A stretch of 11,923 nucleotides of DNA from Candidatus Bipolaricaulia bacterium (GCA_046758705.1 JBHIAT010000115.1:1-11923), one strand, 5' to 3'. Positions 793-11,923 are shown, numbered from the stretch's first letter. Program-made: numbers and translations. The notes: a model not told the origin generated them from the letters alone.

Positions 793-945
793 CCTCCTAC
801 ACTTGGTCAAATATGACCACGTTCGGTCCGCTGCCTTATCGCGGCCAGCGGAGTTTCGCTCTCGGATTGACCCGCCGGATCCCTGCCCTTGTCCACCAAA
901 GGCGCAGTCGGTCGGGTGTCTCGAGTCCTGCCCGGAACAGTCGAT
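793..945 (-). ncRNA. Putative omegaRNA (reRNA) scaffold overlapping the tnpB 3' end; the guide would read into the flank from 792 downward
   Basis: Stacked hairpins: TGGTCA-aata-TGACCA (804-819), TCCGCTGCC..GGCCAGCGGA (827-852) and an imperfect long stem at 870-917. They lie under a Pro/Arg-rich, apparently unstructured TnpB tail and end at the right end of the element. TnpB omegaRNAs are known to occupy this position. The 5' boundary is approximate. Confidence 0.65.
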
Positions 946-2441
946 GGACCCTCGATCCCCACCTCAGCCAGAACGGCCAGATTCACCTGCTGTGGCGGGA
1001 AGTCGAATGCCCACCGTTCCAATCGGCGACGAAACCTGCTTTCTAGGACCGCCCGAACCCGCTCCTTCGGCGTCCAAAGGAGGATCTCGGAATCATGCCA
1101 GCGGTCCAGCAGGTTCAAGGCGGCCACCGCGTCACTATCTCCACCGTGTCCGCAAAACAGACACTGAAACCTGTTCCCACGGCGGTTCTGGCGGTGGACG
1201 AACCCACAGTGAGGACACGTTTGGCTGGAGTAGCTCGCGTTAACCTGCTCATGGTGGGAACCTCCCGCCGACGCCTTGAAGGCGACACGGTCCTTGATCA
1301 AACCGCGAACCCACAAGCTGACAATACGGCTCAGCCGCCTGGATTTCCATTTACCGTTTAAGTAACGAAGATTCTCATGCACCACCACGGCTGGTCCTTT
1401 AGCCTTCCAAAAAGCATTCAGGGCGCGATTGATCTCGTTGGCCAACGTCTGGCGCATCTTGCGGCGCTGCTTGCGCTGCTTCTCCCTACCCAGATTGTAC
1501 TTGCGGATGCGTCGTGCCTTGGCTTTATCACCTTTTTCTTCGGCCCGGCGGGCTAACGCGCCCAGCTTATTGCGCTTGCGGCCTTTGTCGCATATCTGGT
1601 CCGAGTAGTTCGCGAGTCGCTGGCCCAGACCCTCACCCCAACGGTCGCCATCAGAGTCGGTCATGACTTCAGTTACGCCCAAGTCGACCGCCTTCACCTT
1701 CGACCCGTCGGTGACTGGCTCAGGCTTCACCTCGATAGCCCGATGTACTTCGATGCGTCGCTTTTCCTCATCCCGAACGATGCGCAGGTTGCCTTGGATG
1801 GTTCCCCACCCGGTGAGGGGCAGGATCAGGCGCCGGCCAGGCGTGAGGGTCATGATCGAGATATACTGGCGACCGTTCTGCTCAAAGACTCGATACATCT
1901 CAGCATCCAAAGCAAAGCTGCGCACCTGCCCGACCCGGGGATCTTTCCCGCGCTTGCGCCTGATGACCCGGCGCAGATAGGCAACTACTTGGCGCTGCTC
2001 CCTGCGGCTGATGGAGAAGTGCAGCGGAGACGGTGCCCTGCCACTCACCAGTTGAGCCATGTGCCGGGACGACTTCAGCACCCAGAACGCATAGCGGGCT
2101 TGCTCGTCGGTGAAGTGGTCCCGGTTTTTCTGAGCCATCACCAACGGGCGCAGGGCTTCGGCCAGGGCTAGCCACTGCCGATCTATCGTCTCGATCGCAT
2201 CCTGGAGCGCCAGCTTCCACATGCGAGCTTGCAGGCCGAAAGGACTCTGGTAGCCAGTTGCCAGCAGTTCGTCCCGCACCTGGTGGTGGTTCTGGTAACG
2301 GGCGAAGATGGACGGGCGGCCGTATTCTACCAGGAAGCGGTCCTTCTGAGCCACATAAGCGGCGGCGATCTGGTGCACGGTCTGCCACTTGCCCTGGTTC
2401 AGGGAGCGGCTGTAACGCTTGATGGTTCGTCTCAAACTCAC
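807..2441 (-). CDS. tnpB: RNA-guided endonuclease TnpB (IS607-associated), ~544 aa
   Basis: RuvC-I AVDLG, RuvC-II VVHENL, zinc finger CPHC..CLFC after YSSQT, RuvC-III DSDAVAALN. Start moved from the ORF-track 2498 to GTG at 2441, which overlaps the tnpA stop (GTGA) and follows GGAGGGAG. Confidence 0.93.
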   Translation of the reverse strand: MSLRRTIKRYSRSLNQGKWQTVHQIAAAYVAQKDRFLVEYGRPSIFARYQNHHQVRDELLATGYQSPFGLQARMWKLALQDAIETIDRQWLALAEALRPLVMAQKNRDHFTDEQARYAFWVLKSSRHMAQLVSGRAPSPLHFSISRREQRQVVAYLRRVIRRKRGKDPRVGQVRSFALDAEMYRVFEQNGRQYISIMTLTPGRRLILPLTGWGTIQGNLRIVRDEEKRRIEVHRAIEVKPEPVTDGSKVKAVDLGVTEVMTDSDGDRWGEGLGQRLANYSDQICDKGRKRNKLGALARRAEEKGDKAKARRIRKYNLGREKQRKQRRKMRQTLANEINRALNAFWKAKGPAVVVHENLRYLNGKWKSRRLSRIVSLWVRGLIKDRVAFKASAGGSHHEQVNASYSSQTCPHCGFVHRQNRRGNRFQCLFCGHGGDSDAVAALNLLDRWHDSEILLWTPKERVRAVLESRFRRRLERWAFDFPPQQVNLAVLAEVGIEGPSTVPGRTRDTRPTAPLVDKGRDPAGQSESETPLAAIRQRTERGHI

Positions 2442-3094
2442 TGCTCTCCCTCCAGGATGCATACCATCTGTCGAGCCAACTCTGTGACCTGTCTGCATTT
2501 GTAGGAACGCCGGCCGTAGAACTTCGCGCAGAAGTGTTGCACGATGGCGATGAGGTCTTCGGTCAACTCGTGCATGAACTCTGGATCTGGCTTCTCAGAG
2601 CGATTGATGACCACCAGTTTGGTGCCGTACTGAGCGAAGATGGCTTCGATGAGATCGTAGCCGAAGCGGGCCAGTCGGTCTTTGTGAGCCACAATGACCT
2701 TCTCCAGGCGTCCGTTCAGCGCCTTGGTGATGAGCTGGCGGAACTTCGAGCGGCGATAGTTCAAGCCGGATCCGATGTCCGTCCAGACGTCGTCATAGGA
2801 TTGCCCGGCCCCGATGCAGAATTGCTTCAACGTCTGCACTTGGTTCTCCAGGTCATCCTTGTGGGCACGGCTGGAGACGCGGGCATAGAGGATGACCTTT
2901 TTGTTTTTGTCACCAGGGGAGGAAGGCAACGGTTGACCCAGGAACTTACGCAGGGTGGTCTCACTGTAGCGACGATGGCCTCCCTGGGTGCGGATGTCTG
3001 GGACGAGCTTGCCTGACTTATCCCAGCGACGGAGGGTGATGATAGAAACCCCGAGCATCTCGCTGACTTGGCCGATGGAATAGTAGCGATCCAT
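2438..3094 (-). CDS. tnpA: IS607-family transposase TnpA (MerR-type HTH + serine recombinase), ~218 aa
   Basis: N-terminal YSIGQVSEMLGVSIITLRRWDKSGKL..RTQGGHRRY helix-turn-helix; catalytic YARVSS; DIGSGLNY, HKDRLARFG and ELTEDLIAIVQHFCAKFYGRRS motifs. Start moved to ATG 3094 because the ORF-track TTG start (3157) is the -35 box of its promoter. Confidence 0.95.
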   Translation of the reverse strand: MDRYYSIGQVSEMLGVSIITLRRWDKSGKLVPDIRTQGGHRRYSETTLRKFLGQPLPSSPGDKNKKVILYARVSSRAHKDDLENQVQTLKQFCIGAGQSYDDVWTDIGSGLNYRRSKFRQLITKALNGRLEKVIVAHKDRLARFGYDLIEAIFAQYGTKLVVINRSEKPDPEFMHELTEDLIAIVQHFCAKFYGRRSYKCRQVTELARQMVCILEGEQ

Positions 3095-3128
3095 TATATG
3101 AATATCTTTTCCGTATAGATATGTACAT

Positions 3129-3157
3129 ATTATATCACATTTTAGCTTGACTGTCAA
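3129..3157 (-). promoter_or_regulatory. Consensus sigma70 promoter at the IS left end driving tnpA-tnpB
   Basis: Minus strand TTGACA (3157-3152), 17-bp spacer ending in TGA (extended -10 TGn), then TATAAT (3134-3129). Confidence 0.85.
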
Positions 3158-6982: not shown

Positions 6983-7053
6983 GACATTTTGCCCCTTGAC
7001 TCTCATTTTTGTTATTATACCGTACTCCGACCTCGAATGCCACCCCGTCATCC

Positions 7054-7083
7054 TTGATCTTCTCTATCTCCCTCCCGTAGAAT
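7054..7083 (+). promoter_or_regulatory. Candidate sigma70 promoter for the trpBA-aro operon
   Basis: TTGATC (7054-7059), 18-bp spacer, TAGAAT (7078-7083), 33 bp upstream of the trpB ATG. Confidence 0.45.
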
Positions 7084-7116
7084 ATTTCCATAGTAGACGT
7101 TAGGATGTGCTGACCT

Positions 7117-8361
7117 ATGAAAAGTGGAACCAAGGTGGAGAATCATCGGGGGAGATCTCCGGAAAAACTCTCGACCCTGCCGGAGACCGGATGGTTCGGA
7201 GAGTACGGGGGCCGATTCTATCCGGAGGCGTTGATGCCGGCCCTGGAGGGGCTTGAGGAGGCGTATACGGCCCTCCAGGACGACGACGCGTTCCGGCTCG
7301 AGCTGCGCCGCTACTGGGAGGAGTATGAAGGACGTCCCTCCCCACTATATAAAGCGAGCAACCTGAGTGAATATGCCGGCGGGGCGAAGATCTATCTCAA
7401 GCGGGAGGACCTGATCCACGGCGGTGGCCACAGCCTCAACAACGCGCTGGGCCAGATCCTGCTCGCCAAACGGATGGGCAAAAGACGGGTGATCGCCGAG
7501 ACCGGATCGGGTCGACACGGGATCGCGGTGGCGATGGCTGGGGCTCTGCTTGAGGTCGAGGTCGAGATCTTTATGGGGGCCATGGATTTCGACGCGCGTC
7601 GCGCGGAGATCGATGAGATGGAGATGATTGGAGTCCGGGTGCACCGGGTTTCGGACGGTAGAGGAGGGTTGACAGGGGCGATCAACACGACGTTGCGTGT
7701 CTGGATGCAGGACCTGGAAACGACCTATTATCTGCCGAGCACCGCTGTCGGGCCGCATCCCTATCCGATGATCGTCCGGAACTTCCAGAGCGTTATCGGA
7801 GATGAGATCAAAGGTCAGATACTGAGAAAGGAGGGCCGGCTTCCGGACCTGTTGGTCGTCTGCGTCGGCGGCGGAGGCAGCGCCATCGGGACCTTCTATC
7901 CGTTTGTCGACGATGAAGCGGTGAGGTTTCTGGGAGTGGAGGGCGGAGGGCAGGGTCTGGAAAGCGGCCGTCATGCGTCCAAACTGGTTGCCGGGAGTGT
8001 CGGGGTTCTCTACGGGGTGAAGACCTACCTGCTCCAGGACGACAGCGGACGGGTCGTTCCCCCCCGCAGCCTTGCGGCCGACCTCACCTATCCAACGGTC
8101 TCCCCGGAGCTCTCGTTCTACAAAGAGATAGGACGGGCGGAGTATATCTCCGTGACCGATGAGCAAGCGATGGAGGGTTTTCGATCTCTGGCACAGCTGG
8201 AAGGCATCCTGCCTGCCCTGGAGTCTGCCCATGCGATCTATGCCGGCCTGGAGCGGGCAAGGCAGATGGAGCGCGATCAGGTGGTGGTGCTCACCGTGTC
8301 GGGCCGGGGGGAGCGGGATATCGGATTGCTGAAGATGAAGACCGCAGGGTTGGGACCATGA
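7117..8361 (+). CDS. trpB: Tryptophan synthase beta-subunit homologue lacking the PLP-binding lysine (probably not a canonical TrpB enzyme)
   Basis: Full-length TrpB1 motifs: FGEYGGRF, GRPSPLY, IYLKREDL, IAETG, GPHPYPMIVRNFQSVIG, EGILPALESAHA, SGRG. The canonical HTGAHKINN reads HGGGHSLNN here. Confidence 0.9.
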   Translation: MKSGTKVENHRGRSPEKLSTLPETGWFGEYGGRFYPEALMPALEGLEEAYTALQDDDAFRLELRRYWEEYEGRPSPLYKASNLSEYAGGAKIYLKREDLIHGGGHSLNNALGQILLAKRMGKRRVIAETGSGRHGIAVAMAGALLEVEVEIFMGAMDFDARRAEIDEMEMIGVRVHRVSDGRGGLTGAINTTLRVWMQDLETTYYLPSTAVGPHPYPMIVRNFQSVIGDEIKGQILRKEGRLPDLLVVCVGGGGSAIGTFYPFVDDEAVRFLGVEGGGQGLESGRHASKLVAGSVGVLYGVKTYLLQDDSGRVVPPRSLAADLTYPTVSPELSFYKEIGRAEYISVTDEQAMEGFRSLAQLEGILPALESAHAIYAGLERARQMERDQVVVLTVSGRGERDIGLLKMKTAGLGP

Positions 8362-9146
8362 GCGACATCGGGCTCAAGTTTCGAGAGCTGAAGGAGCGGG
8401 GGGAACGGGCACTGATCGTGTATCTGGTCGCCGGAGATCCTTATATCGAATACAGTCGCGAGTTTATCCGAGCACTTGAGGCAGGGGGTGCCGATATGAT
8501 CGGAATCGGGGTTCCTTCCTCCCAATTGATCGTCGAGAGCCCGGTGGTCTGGGATGCACACCTCAGGGCGCTCAACGCCGACATCACCCTCCAGGATGTG
8601 TTAAACCTGATCGAGGAGGTGCGAAGGACGTCGGAGATCCCCATCATCCTGATCAGTTACTATAACCCAATCCTGAAAATGGGCGAGTGGATGTTCATGG
8701 AGCGTTGTGGGGAGCTGAAGGTGGACGGGGTGATGGTCGTGGATCTCCCCCTGGAAGAGGGCGAGGACTACAGTGAACGGGCACGGCGCAACGGGATCGC
8801 CCCGATCTTCTCACTGTCACCGCGATCCGGGTCGAACCGTATTATGGCGATCGGGGCGCGGAGGAACGGGTTTTTACACCTCATCGGCGTGGAGATGGAT
8901 GAACAGGGGGCAGCTCAAACTTGGATCGGAGAGCTGCGTCCCCAGCTTCCTGAGCGGCTGCCTCTGGTGATCGAATGTCGAGGCACGAGCATCGACCAGG
9001 CCGGAATCGCGGCACTACTCCGTTTGGGTGTCGACGGGGTGATCATCTGGGATGCTCTCGTTGAGCGGATCGGCCGGGGAGAGAACCTGGAGCAGATCCA
9101 GTGGTACATCGGTGAACTGAAGGGTGGAACGACGATCGGCGGATAA
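8358..9146 (+). CDS. trpA: Tryptophan synthase alpha-subunit homologue with a degenerate active site
   Basis: 262 aa, ATGA overlap with trpB; RALIVYLVAGDP, GGADMI, RAL, PIILISYYNPI and VDGVMVVDLPLEE motifs. The catalytic segment ELGxPFSDPxADGP reads GIGVPSSQLIVESP. Confidence 0.88.
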   Translation: MSDIGLKFRELKERGERALIVYLVAGDPYIEYSREFIRALEAGGADMIGIGVPSSQLIVESPVVWDAHLRALNADITLQDVLNLIEEVRRTSEIPIILISYYNPILKMGEWMFMERCGELKVDGVMVVDLPLEEGEDYSERARRNGIAPIFSLSPRSGSNRIMAIGARRNGFLHLIGVEMDEQGAAQTWIGELRPQLPERLPLVIECRGTSIDQAGIAALLRLGVDGVIIWDALVERIGRGENLEQIQWYIGELKGGTTIGG

Positions 9147-9209
9147 CAGGGGACAGGTGCCCGCCATCGTACTCCGTGGCTGCGGACGAGGCTGGAGTGG
9201 AGTTGGAGT

Positions 9210-9770
9210 ATGGCCCCAATCATGAACGTGAACGAGAACATCTATCTGATCGGTTTCATGGGTGCAGGAAAGAGCACTGTGGGATTGTTGTTGGCCGAGC
9301 GCACCGATCGAATATATGTCGATACCGATCAGTTGATCGTGGAACAGGTTGAGAGATCGATCGCCGCGATCTTTGCCGATAACGGTGAGAAATACTTCCG
9401 GGATTTGGAATCTGAGATCATTAAAGAGATCTCACGCCAGGAAGGGCTGGTGGTGGCCCTCGGCGGGGGAGCCCCGATCCGCCGCAGGAACTGGGGACGG
9501 ATCGAGCGAACCGGGGTCAGTGTCTATCTCATGGCGAAGCCGAGGACGCTCCTCGAGCGAATCGAGACTGAGGGTGAGGGACGGGAAGAACGGCCGTTGC
9601 TCGCTGGGTTGAGCCGCCAGGAGAAGTTGGCAAGGATCGAGGAGATGCTCTATCAGCGCGCTCCCTATTATATGCAGGCGACGCTCATTGTCCCCAACGA
9701 GCACCGTGCCCCGGAGATGGTCGTCGACGAGATCTTGAGTGGGTTGGCCGAGCTGTATGGCGAGGATTGA
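9210..9770 (+). CDS. aroK: Shikimate kinase
   Basis: NIYLIGFMGAGKSTVG (Walker A), DTD, GEKYFRDLE, LGGG, RPLL and RAPYY. The start could alternatively be ATG 9222. Confidence 0.96.
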   Translation: MAPIMNVNENIYLIGFMGAGKSTVGLLLAERTDRIYVDTDQLIVEQVERSIAAIFADNGEKYFRDLESEIIKEISRQEGLVVALGGGAPIRRRNWGRIERTGVSVYLMAKPRTLLERIETEGEGREERPLLAGLSRQEKLARIEEMLYQRAPYYMQATLIVPNEHRAPEMVVDEILSGLAELYGED

Positions 9771-10882
9771 CCGACACCGACATGGGACGAATCGATGTCG
9801 TGCTCAGCGAACCGGACGAGCGAAGCTATCCGATCTACATCGGGAACGGCCTGTTAGGTGCGGTGGGGTCCCACTATCGTGATCACGGCCTCGGGCCTCG
9901 GACGGCGATCATCACCGACGTGACCGTTGAGCGGCTCTATGGCACCGGGATCGCGGGTTACCTGGCGGATGCGGGCGTCCAGGTCGATACGATCGCGGTT
10001 TCGACCGGAGAGACGGCCAAGACGTTGGCCACGGCTGATACCGTCTATGACGCTCTGATCACCGGAAGGCATGAGCGAAGCTCAACGATCATCGCGCTCG
10101 GGGGCGGGGTGATCGGTGATCTGGCCGGGTTCGTCGCCGCCACCTTCCTACGCGGTCTCCCACTGGTTCAGATTCCCACCACATTGCTGGCTCAGGTGGA
10201 CAGCAGCGTCGGTGGGAAGACGGGGGTCAACCACCGCCTGGGGAAGAACCTGATCGGCACTTTCTACCATCCTCGGTTTGTGCTTATCGATCCCCAGGTG
10301 TTAAGCACGCTGCCCGAGCGGGAGCGCTGGGCAGGGCTGGTTGAGGTGATCAAGTACGGCCTGATCCGGGATGAGCAGCTGTTTCGGCTGCTGGAGTCGC
10401 AGTTGGAAGGGCTGGCTGGCCTCCAGGACGGTCGAACGCTGAACCAGGTGATCGAGACCTGCTGCCGGATCAAGGCGGAGGTGGTCGGTCGGGACGAACG
10501 GGAGCACGGGCTGCGCCGCATCCTGAACTTCGGCCACACCATCGGACACGCTCTTGAGGTGGCCACCGGATACGAGCGGCTGAGGCACGGGGAGGCGGTT
10601 GCCCTGGGGATGTGGGCCGAGGCGTGGTTGTCCCATCGGGAAGGCCTGTTGAGCCAAGCAGAGTTGGCTCGGATCGAGGATCTTTTGGATCGGGTGCCGG
10701 TTCCTGACCTCGCTGAGATCGATGCAGGGCAGTTAATGGATCGGATGCGTTCGGATAAGAAGGTCGAGGCGGGAAGGATCCGGTTCGTGCTGCTTGAACG
10801 AATCGGAGAGGCGATTGTCCGAGAGGTGAACGACGCCCGCATCCTGGAAGCGATCGAACGCCTCCAGCAAAAGGCAAAATGA
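9767..10882 (+). CDS. aroB: 3-dehydroquinate synthase
   Basis: [65 protein letters not shown] and HGEAV. The TTG start overlaps the aroK stop; ATG 9782 is an alternative. Confidence 0.97.
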
Positions 10883-11325
10883 AGCGAATTTTGGTCGTTC
10901 ATGGACCGAACCTGAACCTGCTCGGCGAGCGGGAACCCGGGGTTTACGGAGACCGGGGCCTGAGGGAGTTGAACGCGATGATTGAGCGGTTCGCCGAGGT
11001 GCAGGGGCTGCAGGTTCGCATCTATCAATCGAATCACGAAGGCCGGATTATCGACCGCATCCACGCGAATCGACGCTGGGCCGACGGGATCGTCATCAAC
11101 CCGGGCGCGTTCACCCACTACAGCTACGCGATCCGTGATGCAATCGCCGCCGTCGGGCTGCCGACGGTCGAAGTCCACCTCTCCGATATCGACCGCCGGG
11201 AACCGTTTCGCCGCATCTCGGTGATCGCCCCGGTCTGCATCGAGCAGATCTCGGGGAAGGGCTTCGACAGTTACATCGAAGGGATTCGAACCCTGCTTGA
11301 CCAGGACAAGGGTCTGCTCGTTTGA
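10879..11325 (+). CDS. aroQ: Type II 3-dehydroquinate dehydratase
   Basis: [39 protein letters not shown] and EVHLS..REPFR; ATGA overlap with aroB. Confidence 0.97.
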
Positions 11326-11346: not shown

Positions 11347-11856
11347 TCATGGCTGCGAGGCATCGTCGGAGGTGAACGGCAGGGATGAGACCACCAGGGA
11401 CGAGCCCTCTTCAGAGATTCCCTGAAGGGTGAAGAAGCCAAGCCGCGCCTCGATCGCATACTTGAAGTTGCCGCGATCGGTCCCGTACAGCTCCCCGGAG
11501 TTTGGATACATCCCTTTGATATCGAGGATCCGGCCGTCCGCGGCGATGAACGCGATCTCCAGGGGAGCGAGCACATTGTTCATGTGAACTTGAGCATCGA
11601 TCTCCACTTCGAAGACGAACAAGATGATCGTCTCCTCGATCACCGTCTTGGGGATGTACTGGAATCCAGCGTACCATTCGTGGGGCTCATCGGCGACTCG
11701 GACGGTCATCCGGATCACTTCGCCCGCGTCGTTGATCATCTCGATCTCGGCCGGTTCCATCGCCTCCAGGATGCCGAGTCCGGCCGGTTGGGCCGTTGTC
11801 ACACCCGAAAATGCAACCCCAATTCCGAACAGAATCAGCAGGACATTGTTCGTCAT
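11347..11856 (-). CDS. DUF192-family exported protein
   Basis: Signal-peptide-like N-terminus; VRVADEP..WYAGFQ, ILFVF, HMNNVLAPLEIAFIAADGRILDI and YAIEARLGFF match the DUF192 pattern. ATG 11856 follows AGGAGGAG. Confidence 0.8.
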   Translation of the reverse strand: MTNNVLLILFGIGVAFSGVTTAQPAGLGILEAMEPAEIEMINDAGEVIRMTVRVADEPHEWYAGFQYIPKTVIEETIILFVFEVEIDAQVHMNNVLAPLEIAFIAADGRILDIKGMYPNSGELYGTDRGNFKYAIEARLGFFTLQGISEEGSSLVVSSLPFTSDDASQP

Positions 11857-11923
11857 CTCTTTCTCCTCCTTATTGCCGGTCAATACACCGGACTTCAGTC
11901 CGCGTGATCCGGTATGCTACGAT

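Follow-up and report, generated by a model that had tools for sequence, protein, structure and literature searches.

A trpB-like/trpA-like gene pair of Candidatus Bipolaricaulia bacterium, located ahead of aroK-aroB-aroQ, is with high confidence a native copy of tryptophan synthase that has been stranded, become redundant and is catalytically dead. Its reading frames are very likely held open by selection, and we see about an even chance that this selection acts at the protein level, on a non-catalytic alpha/beta pair. The stretch analysed (GCA_046758705.1 JBHIAT010000115.1:1-11923), hereafter the window, is 11,923 nt long.

Layout of the locus and degeneration of both subunits

The features of the locus are the following (positions in the window):

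7054..7083, + strand: promoter-like site TTGATC-18-TAGAAT, a consensus match only (9/12), 34 bases 5' of the trpB-like start
7117..8361, + strand: trpB-like gene (P0001, 414 aa), TrpB1 fold with Ser106 instead of the PLP lysine
8358..9146, + strand: trpA-like gene (P0002, 262 aa), TrpA barrel with Glu49 -> Gly and Asp60 -> Glu, both phosphate-binding motifs erased and loop 6 shortened
9210..9770, + strand: aroK, shikimate kinase, sole copy found in the genome
9767..10882, + strand: aroB, 3-dehydroquinate synthase, sole copy found in the genome
10879..11325, + strand: aroQ, type II 3-dehydroquinate dehydratase, sole copy found in the genome

The end of trpB-like (8361) and the start of trpA-like (8358) form an ATGA overlap, aroK/aroB and aroB/aroQ overlap by 4 bases, and a spacer of 63 bases separates trpA-like from aroK. 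A second promoter-like site lies upstream of trpB-like (6989-7018), and the region contains five such sites versus 1.4 +/- 1.0 in shuffles. The Rfam search of the window returned zero families at E<=1. The aroK product passes the Pfam SKI profile (145.6 bits, cut-off 22.1) and is below the NCBIfam equivalog cut-offs (best 132.3 versus 186), while those of aroB and aroQ pass TIGR01357 (389.7, cut-off 305) and TIGR01088 (179.1, cut-off 169.85), respectively. This layout agrees with a sequence-only reading of the same DNA, which had described a full-length, overlapping pair with a candidate promoter ahead of aroK-aroB-aroQ, in a window free of trpE, trpG, trpD, trpC and trpF; none of these five genes was found there.

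Both proteins are still recognized as tryptophan synthase subunits. The TrpB-like protein scores above the NCBIfam equivalog cut-off for trpB (TIGR00263, 496.9 bits versus 392.45), with 5ey5_B as its best solved chain (E = 1.3e-139), and the TrpA-like protein above that for trpA (TIGR00262, 161.1 bits versus 102.35), with a best PDB match at E = 5e-42. The AlphaFold2 models reach pLDDT values of 93.5 for TrpB-like and 94.4 for TrpA-like, the latter with Foldseek TM-scores of 0.85-0.90 against TrpA chains; these high pLDDT values are driven by the alignments and do not by themselves demonstrate folding in the cell.

Residue losses in both subunits were read by aligning the pair with solved chains and with the canonical copies present in the genome, which agree that the pair is degenerate at catalytic positions, as the sequence-only reading had claimed. 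In the TrpB-like protein, the lysine motif H-T/G-G-A-H-K has become HGGGHS, and Ser106 (codon AGC) is aligned to the lysine of 5ey5_B, of 1v8z_A (residue 82 in P. furiosus) and of the genome's canonical copy; no substitute lysine was seen elsewhere in the protein. The PLP phosphate loop is lost, GGGSNA being replaced by GGGGSA (GGGGS at 251-255), with two altered columns that are at least 97% conserved in 107 Lys-bearing homologs, and GLDYPGVGPEH reads DLTYPTVSPEL. The protein retains His105, the catalytic Glu128 (IAETG; E109 in Salmonella) and Ser395 (VSGRG). Ala160, Thr186 and Thr324 replace R, K and D residues found in at least 97% of the Lys-bearing homologs. We take these positions to correspond to beta R141, K167 and D305, assuming the offset of +19 given by K87 at residue 106; together with alpha D56, these residues presumably form the alpha-beta allosteric network.

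The TrpA-like protein is likewise modified in its active-site segments. The motif E-L-G-I-P-F-S-D-P-L-A-D-G-P is replaced by GIGVPSSQLIVESP, corresponding to Glu49 -> Gly, Asp56 -> Gln, Asp60 -> Glu and Gly61 -> Ser, in which the Glu49 and Asp60 columns are 93% and 98% conserved among 44 other TrpAs. The phosphate motifs GFGIS and VGSA have become CRGTSI and IWDA, so that the IGP phosphate site is altered at F210 (Thr), G211 (Ser), G231 (Trp) and S232 (Asp). Loops 2 and 6 are both altered, and loop 6 lacks six residues, including a conserved G and a conserved T. Since both subunits are deprived of their catalytic requirements, we conclude from the alignments that the pair would be able neither to cleave IGP nor to make tryptophan.

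The altered conserved sites are not evenly spread and are limited to active-site and allosteric elements. In TrpA-like, 14/47 conserved columns are altered, 14/20 in active-site segments versus 0/27 outside (Fisher p = 1e-7). In TrpB-like, 31 of the 153 invariant columns are altered, with 15/41 in the COMM region versus 16/112 elsewhere (p = 0.005) and only 2/37 in residues 1-120.

Origin of the locus and the second trp operon

Gene maps of 67 loci revealed the order trpC/F-B-A-aroK-B-Q in families f3, f4, f5, f7, f10 and f11, and the co-directional B-A-K-B-Q order of the window is the same as in these relatives. Close homologs carry the name Candidatus Bipolaricaulota. In the window, a divergent ORF is located upstream of trpB-like, where relatives carry trpC/trpF. 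Moreover, the TrpA-like protein is nested among the TrpAs of supraoperons (SH-aLRT 96). Since a single supraoperon, trpC-F-B-A-aroK-B-Q, is the ancestral layout of the class, the linkage of the pair to aroK-aroB-aroQ is inherited synteny. The sequence-only reading had seen in this linkage a candidate module: the probable selection on the frames and the recurrence of such genes in the class (see below) support this in part, while the association with aroK-aroB-aroQ is the tail of an inherited supraoperon and no designed module.

A second contig of the same genome (C19) carries a complete trp operon, trpB2-E-G-D-C-F-B-A, with a TIGR00263 score of 601.9 bits; both this contig and that of the window (C115) are typical of the bin by GC content and tetranucleotide use. 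This operon, which lies outside the DNA that the sequence-only reading had before it, very probably makes tryptophan, and the native trpB/trpA pair is therefore redundant.

Probable selection on the pair and on Lys-less TrpB of the class

The 676 codons of the pair contain no stop or frameshift. A non-synonymous single-base change in these frames would create a stop in about 5.2% of cases, so that, by our own arithmetic, several stops would be expected had 20% of the invariant sites changed neutrally, and none is present. Over 1298 bases of the two genes, pieces of the X4 run (about 88-90% identity) align with a single gap, of 6 bases and in frame. Among the 1-base indels listed for this relative, 6/8 lie in the spacers 7000-7030 and 9148-9153, and three 1-base insertions (9202, 9203 and 9208) are present in the trpA-like/aroK spacer. 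In the 40 listed of 315 differences, on which this count is based and some of which possibly come from TrpB contigs of other organisms, trpB-like exhibits 7 synonymous and 4 non-synonymous changes versus 12 and 5 for aroQ. At the invariant positions 248 and 255, the X4 relative appears to differ towards the canonical residue, as if decay were ongoing. The terminal branches are long for both TrpB-like (0.62 versus a median of 0.11) and TrpA-like (1.21 versus a median of 0.17), a feature as compatible with relaxation as with a new role.

The many altered conserved columns, these long branches and the degradation series observed at the locus within the class, which ends in a single remaining trpB-like gene (G023b) or in no TrpB1 match, are what one would expect if the two genes were young pseudogenes that lost their function recently and are intact by chance. 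We consider this very improbable, because the changes are unevenly distributed, the frames are free of stops and frameshifts despite the roughly 5% chance of a stop and the 1-base indels in the spacers of the relative, five analogous redundant copies all have open frames with zero internal stops, and the GC content at all three codon positions still resembles that of the neighbouring aro genes.

The variant is not confined to one genome: the survey of the class detected recurrent Lys-less TrpB together with degenerate TrpA. The TrpB lysine is missing in 14/22 loci with neither trpC nor trpF upstream and in 1/45 loci with either, whereas in a broad metagenome sample the lysine motif is present in 78/80 TrpB loci, the other two being misfires of the pattern search. 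Loss of the lysine is no chance event. Less degenerate relatives have lost the lysine alone and still possess the PLP phosphate loop together with most of the substrate contacts. The dN/dS of Lys-less trpB, calculated on genes of relatives, is 0.08-0.11 in genus g10 (at dS 0.69-0.91) and 0.04-0.08 in g4, matching the Lys-bearing g4 genes (0.044-0.066); values of 0.04-0.11 apply to Lys-less genes in genomes where searches detected neither trpD nor IGP synthase nor shikimate kinase. The redundant copies of G011 and G113 differ by dN 0.187 and dS 1.46. These dN/dS values, the clustering of changes and the in-frame-only indel support the earlier proposal that selection, very likely, rather than chance holds the frames open.

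What this selection sees could be position alone. The pair would then be a relic without any function of its own, open only because it forms the first cistrons of the sole aroKBQ unit. Translational coupling would break at any stop or frameshift, lowering the expression of essential downstream genes, and selection against misfolding would spare structural residues. The organization of the unit is compatible with such polarity, with aroK, aroB and aroQ each found once in a genome of 93.9% completeness, cistrons that overlap or abut, no promoter-like site in the spacer ahead of aroK and no terminator-like site on the + strand from 7117 to 11325. The doubly degenerate pairs G011a and G113a, whose branches are also accelerated, likewise precede the only aroK found in their genomes, as polarity predicts. 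However, intact Lys-less pairs without aro genes behind exist in G039, G015, G027, G102 and other genomes, with dN/dS of 0.04-0.11, and the lone trpB-like gene of G023b is intact with no aro gene downstream. Clean loss of trpBA is evidently frequent in the class (no TrpB1 match in 123/184 genomes), so that a useless pair could be deleted. In addition, the all-or-none pattern of changes in TrpA-like calls for selection at the protein level, and avoidance of misfolding alone is a weak force when protein abundance is not known. We regard the relic explanation as the main alternative, less likely than selection for a non-catalytic protein pair.

The sequence-only reading had also listed as options that the pair senses tryptophan, serine or indole and regulates the shikimate enzymes, that it is a regulatory partner of a canonical TrpAB, or that a substrate derived from shikimate undergoes a new reaction on it. 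The pair is likely to be co-transcribed with aroK-B-Q, the beta residues Glu128 and His105 and the serine of SGRG are kept, and the milder relatives that lose only the lysine resemble the laboratory mutant beta-K87T, which holds amino-acid aldimines tightly. The case for a control of shikimate enzymes is nevertheless weakened by G039, a genome with a Lys-less pair in which searches detected neither trpD nor IGPS nor shikimate kinase, and by G023, in which shikimate kinase was not found either; the aro linkage itself is inherited. Ligand sensing by the pair of the window is doubtful since the PLP lysine, with no replacement, the PLP phosphate loop, the IGP phosphate site, alpha loops 2 and 6, the beta COMM residues and the presumed allosteric residues are all altered, leaving little of any known ligand site. 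Altogether, such a sensor or new enzyme seems improbable.

Our preferred scenario is the following. With high confidence, the two genes are the native trpB and trpA, the middle of the class-wide trpC-trpF-trpB-trpA-aroK-aroB-aroQ supraoperon, whose upstream trp genes have vanished from the locus in the lineage of the window, the pair turning redundant as the complete C19 operon supplies tryptophan. The beta subunit has lost the Schiff-base lysine, the phosphate loop and the residues equated with the R141-D305 salt bridge and K167; in the alpha subunit, Glu49 and Asp60 are gone, as are the phosphate site for IGP and a portion of loop 6. Transcription of the pair probably still starts from the promoter-like site at 7054, its two genes being the leading cistrons translated from the sole aroK-aroB-aroQ operon, and selection may maintain it as folded, non-catalytic alpha/beta pseudoenzymes. 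Its likeliest role would be that of a structural or regulatory partner that needs the folds and not the active sites.

Our literature searches returned no account of a Lys-less TrpB from bacteria. We tentatively suggest, with a confidence slightly short of even, that Bipolaricaulia harbour an undescribed family of natural Lys-less TrpBs with their TrpA partners, which arose repeatedly from the native supraoperon copy each time the upstream pathway disappeared or this copy became redundant through a second trp operon. Purifying selection on this family would be as strong as on working enzymes, even where IGP synthase, trpD and shikimate kinase were not detected, and the doubly dead pair of the window would be its most derived form. 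If this is true, the tryptophan synthase fold has a second, lysine-independent function, e.g., in binding, sensing or scaffolding.

Comparison with known tryptophan synthases

The pair shares with canonical TrpA/TrpB1 (Salmonella, P. furiosus, LBCA-TS 5ey5) the same folds and lengths, adjacent and overlapping genes with trpB ahead of trpA, and scores beyond the equivalog cut-offs. Unlike them, its beta subunit lacks the PLP lysine and the phosphate loop, and its alpha subunit lacks Glu49, Asp60, the phosphate site for IGP and a portion of loop 6; also missing are the presumed allosteric residues beta R141, K167 and D305 and alpha D56. The R141-D305 salt bridge is described as important in tryptophan synthase (PMC9512447).

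Single positions of this kind have been changed in the laboratory in Salmonella, as indicated by the entries for beta-K87T (2tys), alpha-D60N (1a5a/1a5b/1beu) and beta-K167T (6duc/7lgx). The equivalent sites have changed naturally here, the lysine to T, S or A in relatives and to S in the window, D60 to E and the K167 equivalent to T; each laboratory mutant carries one engineered substitution and is intact in all other respects.

The plant TSB-like pseudoenzyme (Florean et al., 2025, PMC12727527) is a similar case of a non-catalytic beta paralog under selection beside a working tryptophan synthase. It differs from TSB at two residues, with Ala for the catalytic Glu and Glu for an Asp, keeps the PLP machinery and activates a competent TSA, leading to indole release. 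The pattern of the window is reversed, the catalytic Glu being present and the lysine lost, and its alpha partner is dead as well, so that the plant mechanism is inapplicable to the pair as it stands.

Chlamydia trachomatis retains a TrpBA pair while lacking the remainder of the pathway; according to Michalska et al. (2021, PMC8376405), TrpA is an inactive yet retained partner with conserved catalytic residues and partly relaxed purifying selection, and TrpB is active, whereas both subunits of the window lack catalytic residues. Finally, the cluster of Bipolaricaulota strain J31 (bioRxiv 10.1101/2025.11.21.689855) groups trp genes with aroK/aroB/aroQ in one co-directional overlapping array. 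Compared to such trp-aro supraoperons, the window retains only the B-A-K-B-Q tail, with its two trp members catalytically dead.

Layout and catalytic positions of the window's pair

The window is a complete contig (C115). The segment from 7117 to 11325 on the + strand holds five closely packed ORFs, all named by Pfam and NCBIfam profiles and joined by three 4-base overlaps and one 63-base spacer. The features of the window discussed here are the following:

807-3157, - strand, TnpB-type ORF of 563 aa with a Cas12f1-like/TnpB TNB domain, overlapping a 239-aa serine resolvase
7054-7083, promoter-like site upstream of the trpB-like gene
7117-8361, + strand, trpB-like gene (protein P0001, 414 aa)
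8358-9146, + strand, trpA-like gene (protein P0002, 262 aa)
9210-9770, + strand, aroK (186 aa)
9767-10882, + strand, aroB (371 aa)
10879-11325, + strand, aroQ (148 aa)

No + strand terminator-like site was found within the five-gene unit, and the window has no Rfam match at E ≤ 1. The aroK, aroB and aroQ genes are the sole copies detected in the genome (G000).

The residues lost were read by aligning the proteins to solved chains with HMMER and to the canonical copies of the same genome with MAFFT. The trpB-like protein reads HGGGHS in place of the TrpB motif H-x-G-A-H-K, with Ser106 (codon AGC) in the position of the lysine that forms the Schiff base with PLP (K87 in Salmonella); GGGSN is replaced by GGGGS and GLDYPGVGPEH by DLTYPTVSPEL. 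It carries Ala, Thr and Thr at sites that we take to be β R141, K167 and D305 in Salmonella numbering, anchored by equating K87 with residue 106. The β R141-D305 salt bridge and its role are discussed in PMC9512447. In the trpA-like protein, ELGIPFSDPLADGP is replaced by GIGVPSSQLIVESP, so that Glu49, Asp56, Asp60 and Gly61 are all altered; GFGIS has become CRGTSI, VGSA has become IWDA, and loop 6 is shorter by six residues. The laboratory mutants β-K87T, α-D60N and β-K167T appear as entry titles among the solved-structure matches. Both sets of alignments thus bear out the sequence-only reading that the two subunits are degenerate at catalytic sites and yet full length. Both proteins exceed the curated NCBIfam equivalog cut-offs, and their predicted models are confident (pLDDT 93.5 for trpB-like and 94.4 for trpA-like; TM 0.85-0.90 between the trpA-like model and TrpA chains), these models being driven by the alignments and no proof of folding.

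The changes in the window's pair are not random. In the trpA-like protein, 14 of 20 conserved columns are changed in active-site segments vs 0 of 27 elsewhere (p = 1e-7), the segments being partly post hoc, drawn from Salmonella elements after inspection of the data. In the trpB-like protein, changes affect 15 of 41 invariant columns in the COMM region vs 16 of 112 in the remainder (p = 0.005); residues 1-120 have just 2 of 37 changed. The all-or-none pattern in the trpA-like protein favours the explanation that selection acts on the proteins themselves, in a non-catalytic role, to which we give about an even chance.

The resolvase at 807-3157 contains a MerR-type HTH domain, and together with the TnpB-like ORF it looks like an IS607-family element. 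Four ORFs follow between 3236 and 7051, encoding a MutY-like glycosylase (HhH-GPD and NUDIX_4), an Rce1-like CAAX protease, a GT4 glycosyltransferase and a 194-aa protein with no Pfam match. Genome G011 (locus L035) likewise has an Rce1-like gene upstream of a trpB without the lysine, but there the two genes are co-directional, and any synteny is weak at best. The summed contig depth across runs rises about 10-fold (from ~10 to 99-118) in the last 160 bases (11765-11923), suggesting that the contig ends in an element that is repeated or shared widely.

Supraoperon origin and a second trp operon

P0001 was used to query 184 genomes of the same class, of which 61 gave a TrpB1 match at E ≤ 1e-100; the neighbourhoods of 65 matches were retrieved, and trpD/C/F/B/A and aroK/B/Q were mapped by tblastn. 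The order trpC-trpF-trpB-trpA-aroK-aroB-aroQ, or its visible part, is present in families f3, f4, f5, f7, f10 and f11. Judged by these gene maps, the window appears to hold the tail of a class-wide trp-aro supraoperon, and the aro linkage of the pair would for that reason be inherited, not new. The proposal that the pair heads a shikimate operon as a new module is therefore not retained. The close homologs are labelled Candidatus Bipolaricaulota, and for the first cultured member a figure legend of the preprint groups trpA, shikimate kinase and dehydroquinase (bioRxiv 10.1101/2025.11.21.689855). An apparent absence of trpA in genome G007 was rejected, as tblastn shows an intact gene; in the same genome (L038, contig C13, 5579-7234) aroK and aroB are fused in a single 551-aa ORF.

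The window's genome also encodes, on contig C19, a trpB2-trpE-G-D-C-F-B-A operon with normal catalytic motifs. The window and C19 do not stand out from the bin in GC content (0.586 and 0.583) or in tetranucleotide distance, which falls in the 17th and 12th percentile, respectively. We considered C19 as a foreign or contaminant operon and dropped this idea, its composition being bin-typical and its TrpB 57-62% identical to those of class members. The bin as a whole (3.7 Mb in 319 contigs, completeness 93.9%) may be chimeric given its contamination of 4.7%, though the two contigs are alike in composition. The bin is alone in its family, and nearly all surveyed class relatives have 0.9-2.9 Mb. 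Directly upstream of the canonical operon (L010, 23-4118) lie an NRPS module with condensation-adenylation-type hits, an unidentified ORF and a HetI-type phosphopantetheinyl transferase gene. From sequence comparison, the window's pair is very probably the native trpBA of the supraoperon, stranded, redundant and catalytically dead.

Recurrence, divergence and selection of TrpB without the lysine

The variant recurs across the class, beyond the window's genome. Among the 119 best database matches to P0001, 25 lack the lysine (T in 18, A in 2, S in 2, P in 1, N in 1), the motif being unread by the regular expression in 3. The loss was tallied over 67 loci, including the window and C19; these counts are not independent trials, the surveyed genomes being related to each other.

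State of the catalytic lysine by gene context (one Lys-less locus, G095, was read via the identical protein P0171)
trpF or trpC directly upstream: 45 loci; kept 44, lost 1 (G104a), unread 0
Neither trpF nor trpC upstream: 22 loci; kept 7, lost 14, unread 1 (G097)

Lys-less loci occur in two settings. The first comprises genomes without detected trpD, TrpB2 and IGPS, as in family f4 (trpD in 0 of 7, TrpB2 in 0 of 7, IGPS in 0 of 5), and the second comprises genomes that have an additional, canonical trp operon (G000, G011, G104 and G023). In G113, the His adjoining the lysine position is changed to Pro. In the trees, a Lys-bearing clade of genus g4, including G098 with trpC-F, is nested within Lys-less lineages, which implies several independent losses or a reversal. 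Of 104 representatives (50% identity) whose motif could be read, 6 lack the lysine, and a broad metagenome sample has it in 78 of 80 TrpB loci, the other two being regular-expression misreads. The nearest homologs of the pair in the database search are 61% (TrpB) and 43% (TrpA) identical; a metagenome scan with P0001 found only relatives of ≤56% identity, mostly through a generic motif.

Several divergent cases deserve mention. P0142, P0143 and their neighbours are nearly identical TrpBs with K or T at the catalytic position and branch lengths near zero, suggesting polymorphism within populations. P0230, a 585-aa TrpB-like protein from one assembly source only, carries Leu where the lysine would be and Asp instead of the catalytic Glu, and is extended by ~170 aa at the C terminus; 50% identical to P0001, with a 14-residue identical stretch in common, it may be a distant ortholog, and a metagenome scan with it found no relatives. 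In G023, which gave no shikimate kinase match, a Lys-less trpB-like gene that stands alone, intact and very divergent (L089, contig C5, 1447-2739; Leu at the lysine, preceding His changed to Asn) sits between a Sir2 gene and tuf-nusG-rplK-rplA, a slot that holds trpB-trpA-aroK-aroB-aroQ in G011.

The window's pair is the far end of a gradient: of 153 invariant TrpB columns, 2 are changed in G003, 5-7 in G031 and G039, 18-25 in genus g10 and 31 in the window. In a tree omitting G068, G001, G033, G025 and G115, long terminal TrpB branches occur in all redundant copies of two-operon genomes (G000 0.62, G104a 0.67, G023b 1.09, G011a 0.33 and G113a 0.25; median 0.11). The window's TrpA-like branch is 1.21 vs a median of 0.17 in a tree omitting G073 and G090, and neither the GFGIS phosphate motif nor the whole of loop 6 survives in any of the TrpAs of G000, G104a, G011a and G113a.

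Purifying selection on Lys-less trpB is seen in the relatives g10 and g4 (dN/dS 0.04-0.11), as the sequence-only reading had supposed for the pair. A custom Nei-Gojobori script applied to tblastn-cut genes gave 0.08-0.11 (dS 0.69-0.91) for g10, where all three genomes have Ser, most simply through one ancestral loss, 0.04-0.08 for Lys-less and 0.044-0.066 for Lys-bearing g4 trpB, and 0.06-0.14 for trpA of both genera; G033 pairs were omitted as artefacts (bad tblastn-cut CDS, absurd values). Several of these selected pairs have no aro genes behind, and G039 gave no shikimate kinase match. Strong constraint on Lys-less pairs elsewhere without aro genes is a second point in favour of a non-catalytic role of the proteins. 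In a 73-tip clade, the lysine column shows 12 Fitch changes, the most of the 139 columns conserved outside the clade, of which 74 show none. Positive selection on this column was rejected, 12 changes being only the 90th percentile of all 384 columns: the site behaves as unconstrained, not driven, and in this clade seems free to vary within an otherwise constrained protein. A lysine elsewhere that might take its place was looked for in the Lys-less proteins and not found; Lys-enriched columns, considered as compensating, look lineage-specific.

The window itself is matched by four DNA runs of one study, with no RNA run among the listed matches. In run X3, a single contig covers 6400-11898 and carries 5 differences (2 synonymous in trpB-like; 2 non-synonymous and 1 synonymous in trpA-like) that agree with protein P0379. 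Pieces from run X4 are ~88-90% identical over 1298 bases of the pair, where their sole gap is an in-frame deletion of 6 bases; the 1-base indels listed fall in the spacers 7000-7030 and 9148-9208. Its coding tally, covering 40 of 315 differences, some possibly from TrpB contigs of other organisms, gives 7 synonymous and 4 non-synonymous changes in trpB-like, 2 and 2 in trpA-like, 4 and 0 in aroB, and 12 and 5 in aroQ. We infer that the open frames of the pair are kept by selection.

Meaning of the pair and nearest precedents

Alternatively, the frames could be preserved because they head the sole aroKBQ operon, with selection acting on their translation and not on the proteins. All doubly degenerate pairs that could be placed precede the only aroK found, and the locus shows a series of degraded states that ends in a solitary trpB-like gene, both of which speak for this explanation; we consider it the main rival, less likely than a role of the proteins. 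If the proteins are functionless, the locus would be a clean natural case of frames preserved only by operon position.

Tryptophan synthase is a textbook example of substrate channelling and allostery. If, as in the reading centred on the proteins, they have a function, this very well studied fold would gain a new one, and the reading of trpA/trpB calls in genome-based predictions of tryptophan prototrophy would change, because all these genes pass curated equivalog thresholds.

No description of a bacterial TrpB without the PLP lysine was found in a full-text literature search conducted mostly outside subscription journals. As precedents, the nearest are the TSB-like pseudoenzyme of plants (PMC12727527) and Chlamydia TrpA, which is inactive (PMC8376405). 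The plant protein keeps the PLP lysine, unlike the Lys-less TrpB, and the Chlamydia case concerns the alpha subunit alone; no further pseudoenzyme relatives of tryptophan synthase are known to have been described. Several genomes here have both subunits dead at once. As for the laboratory mutant β-K87T, the equivalent change has been made repeatedly in nature, and the protein was then kept.
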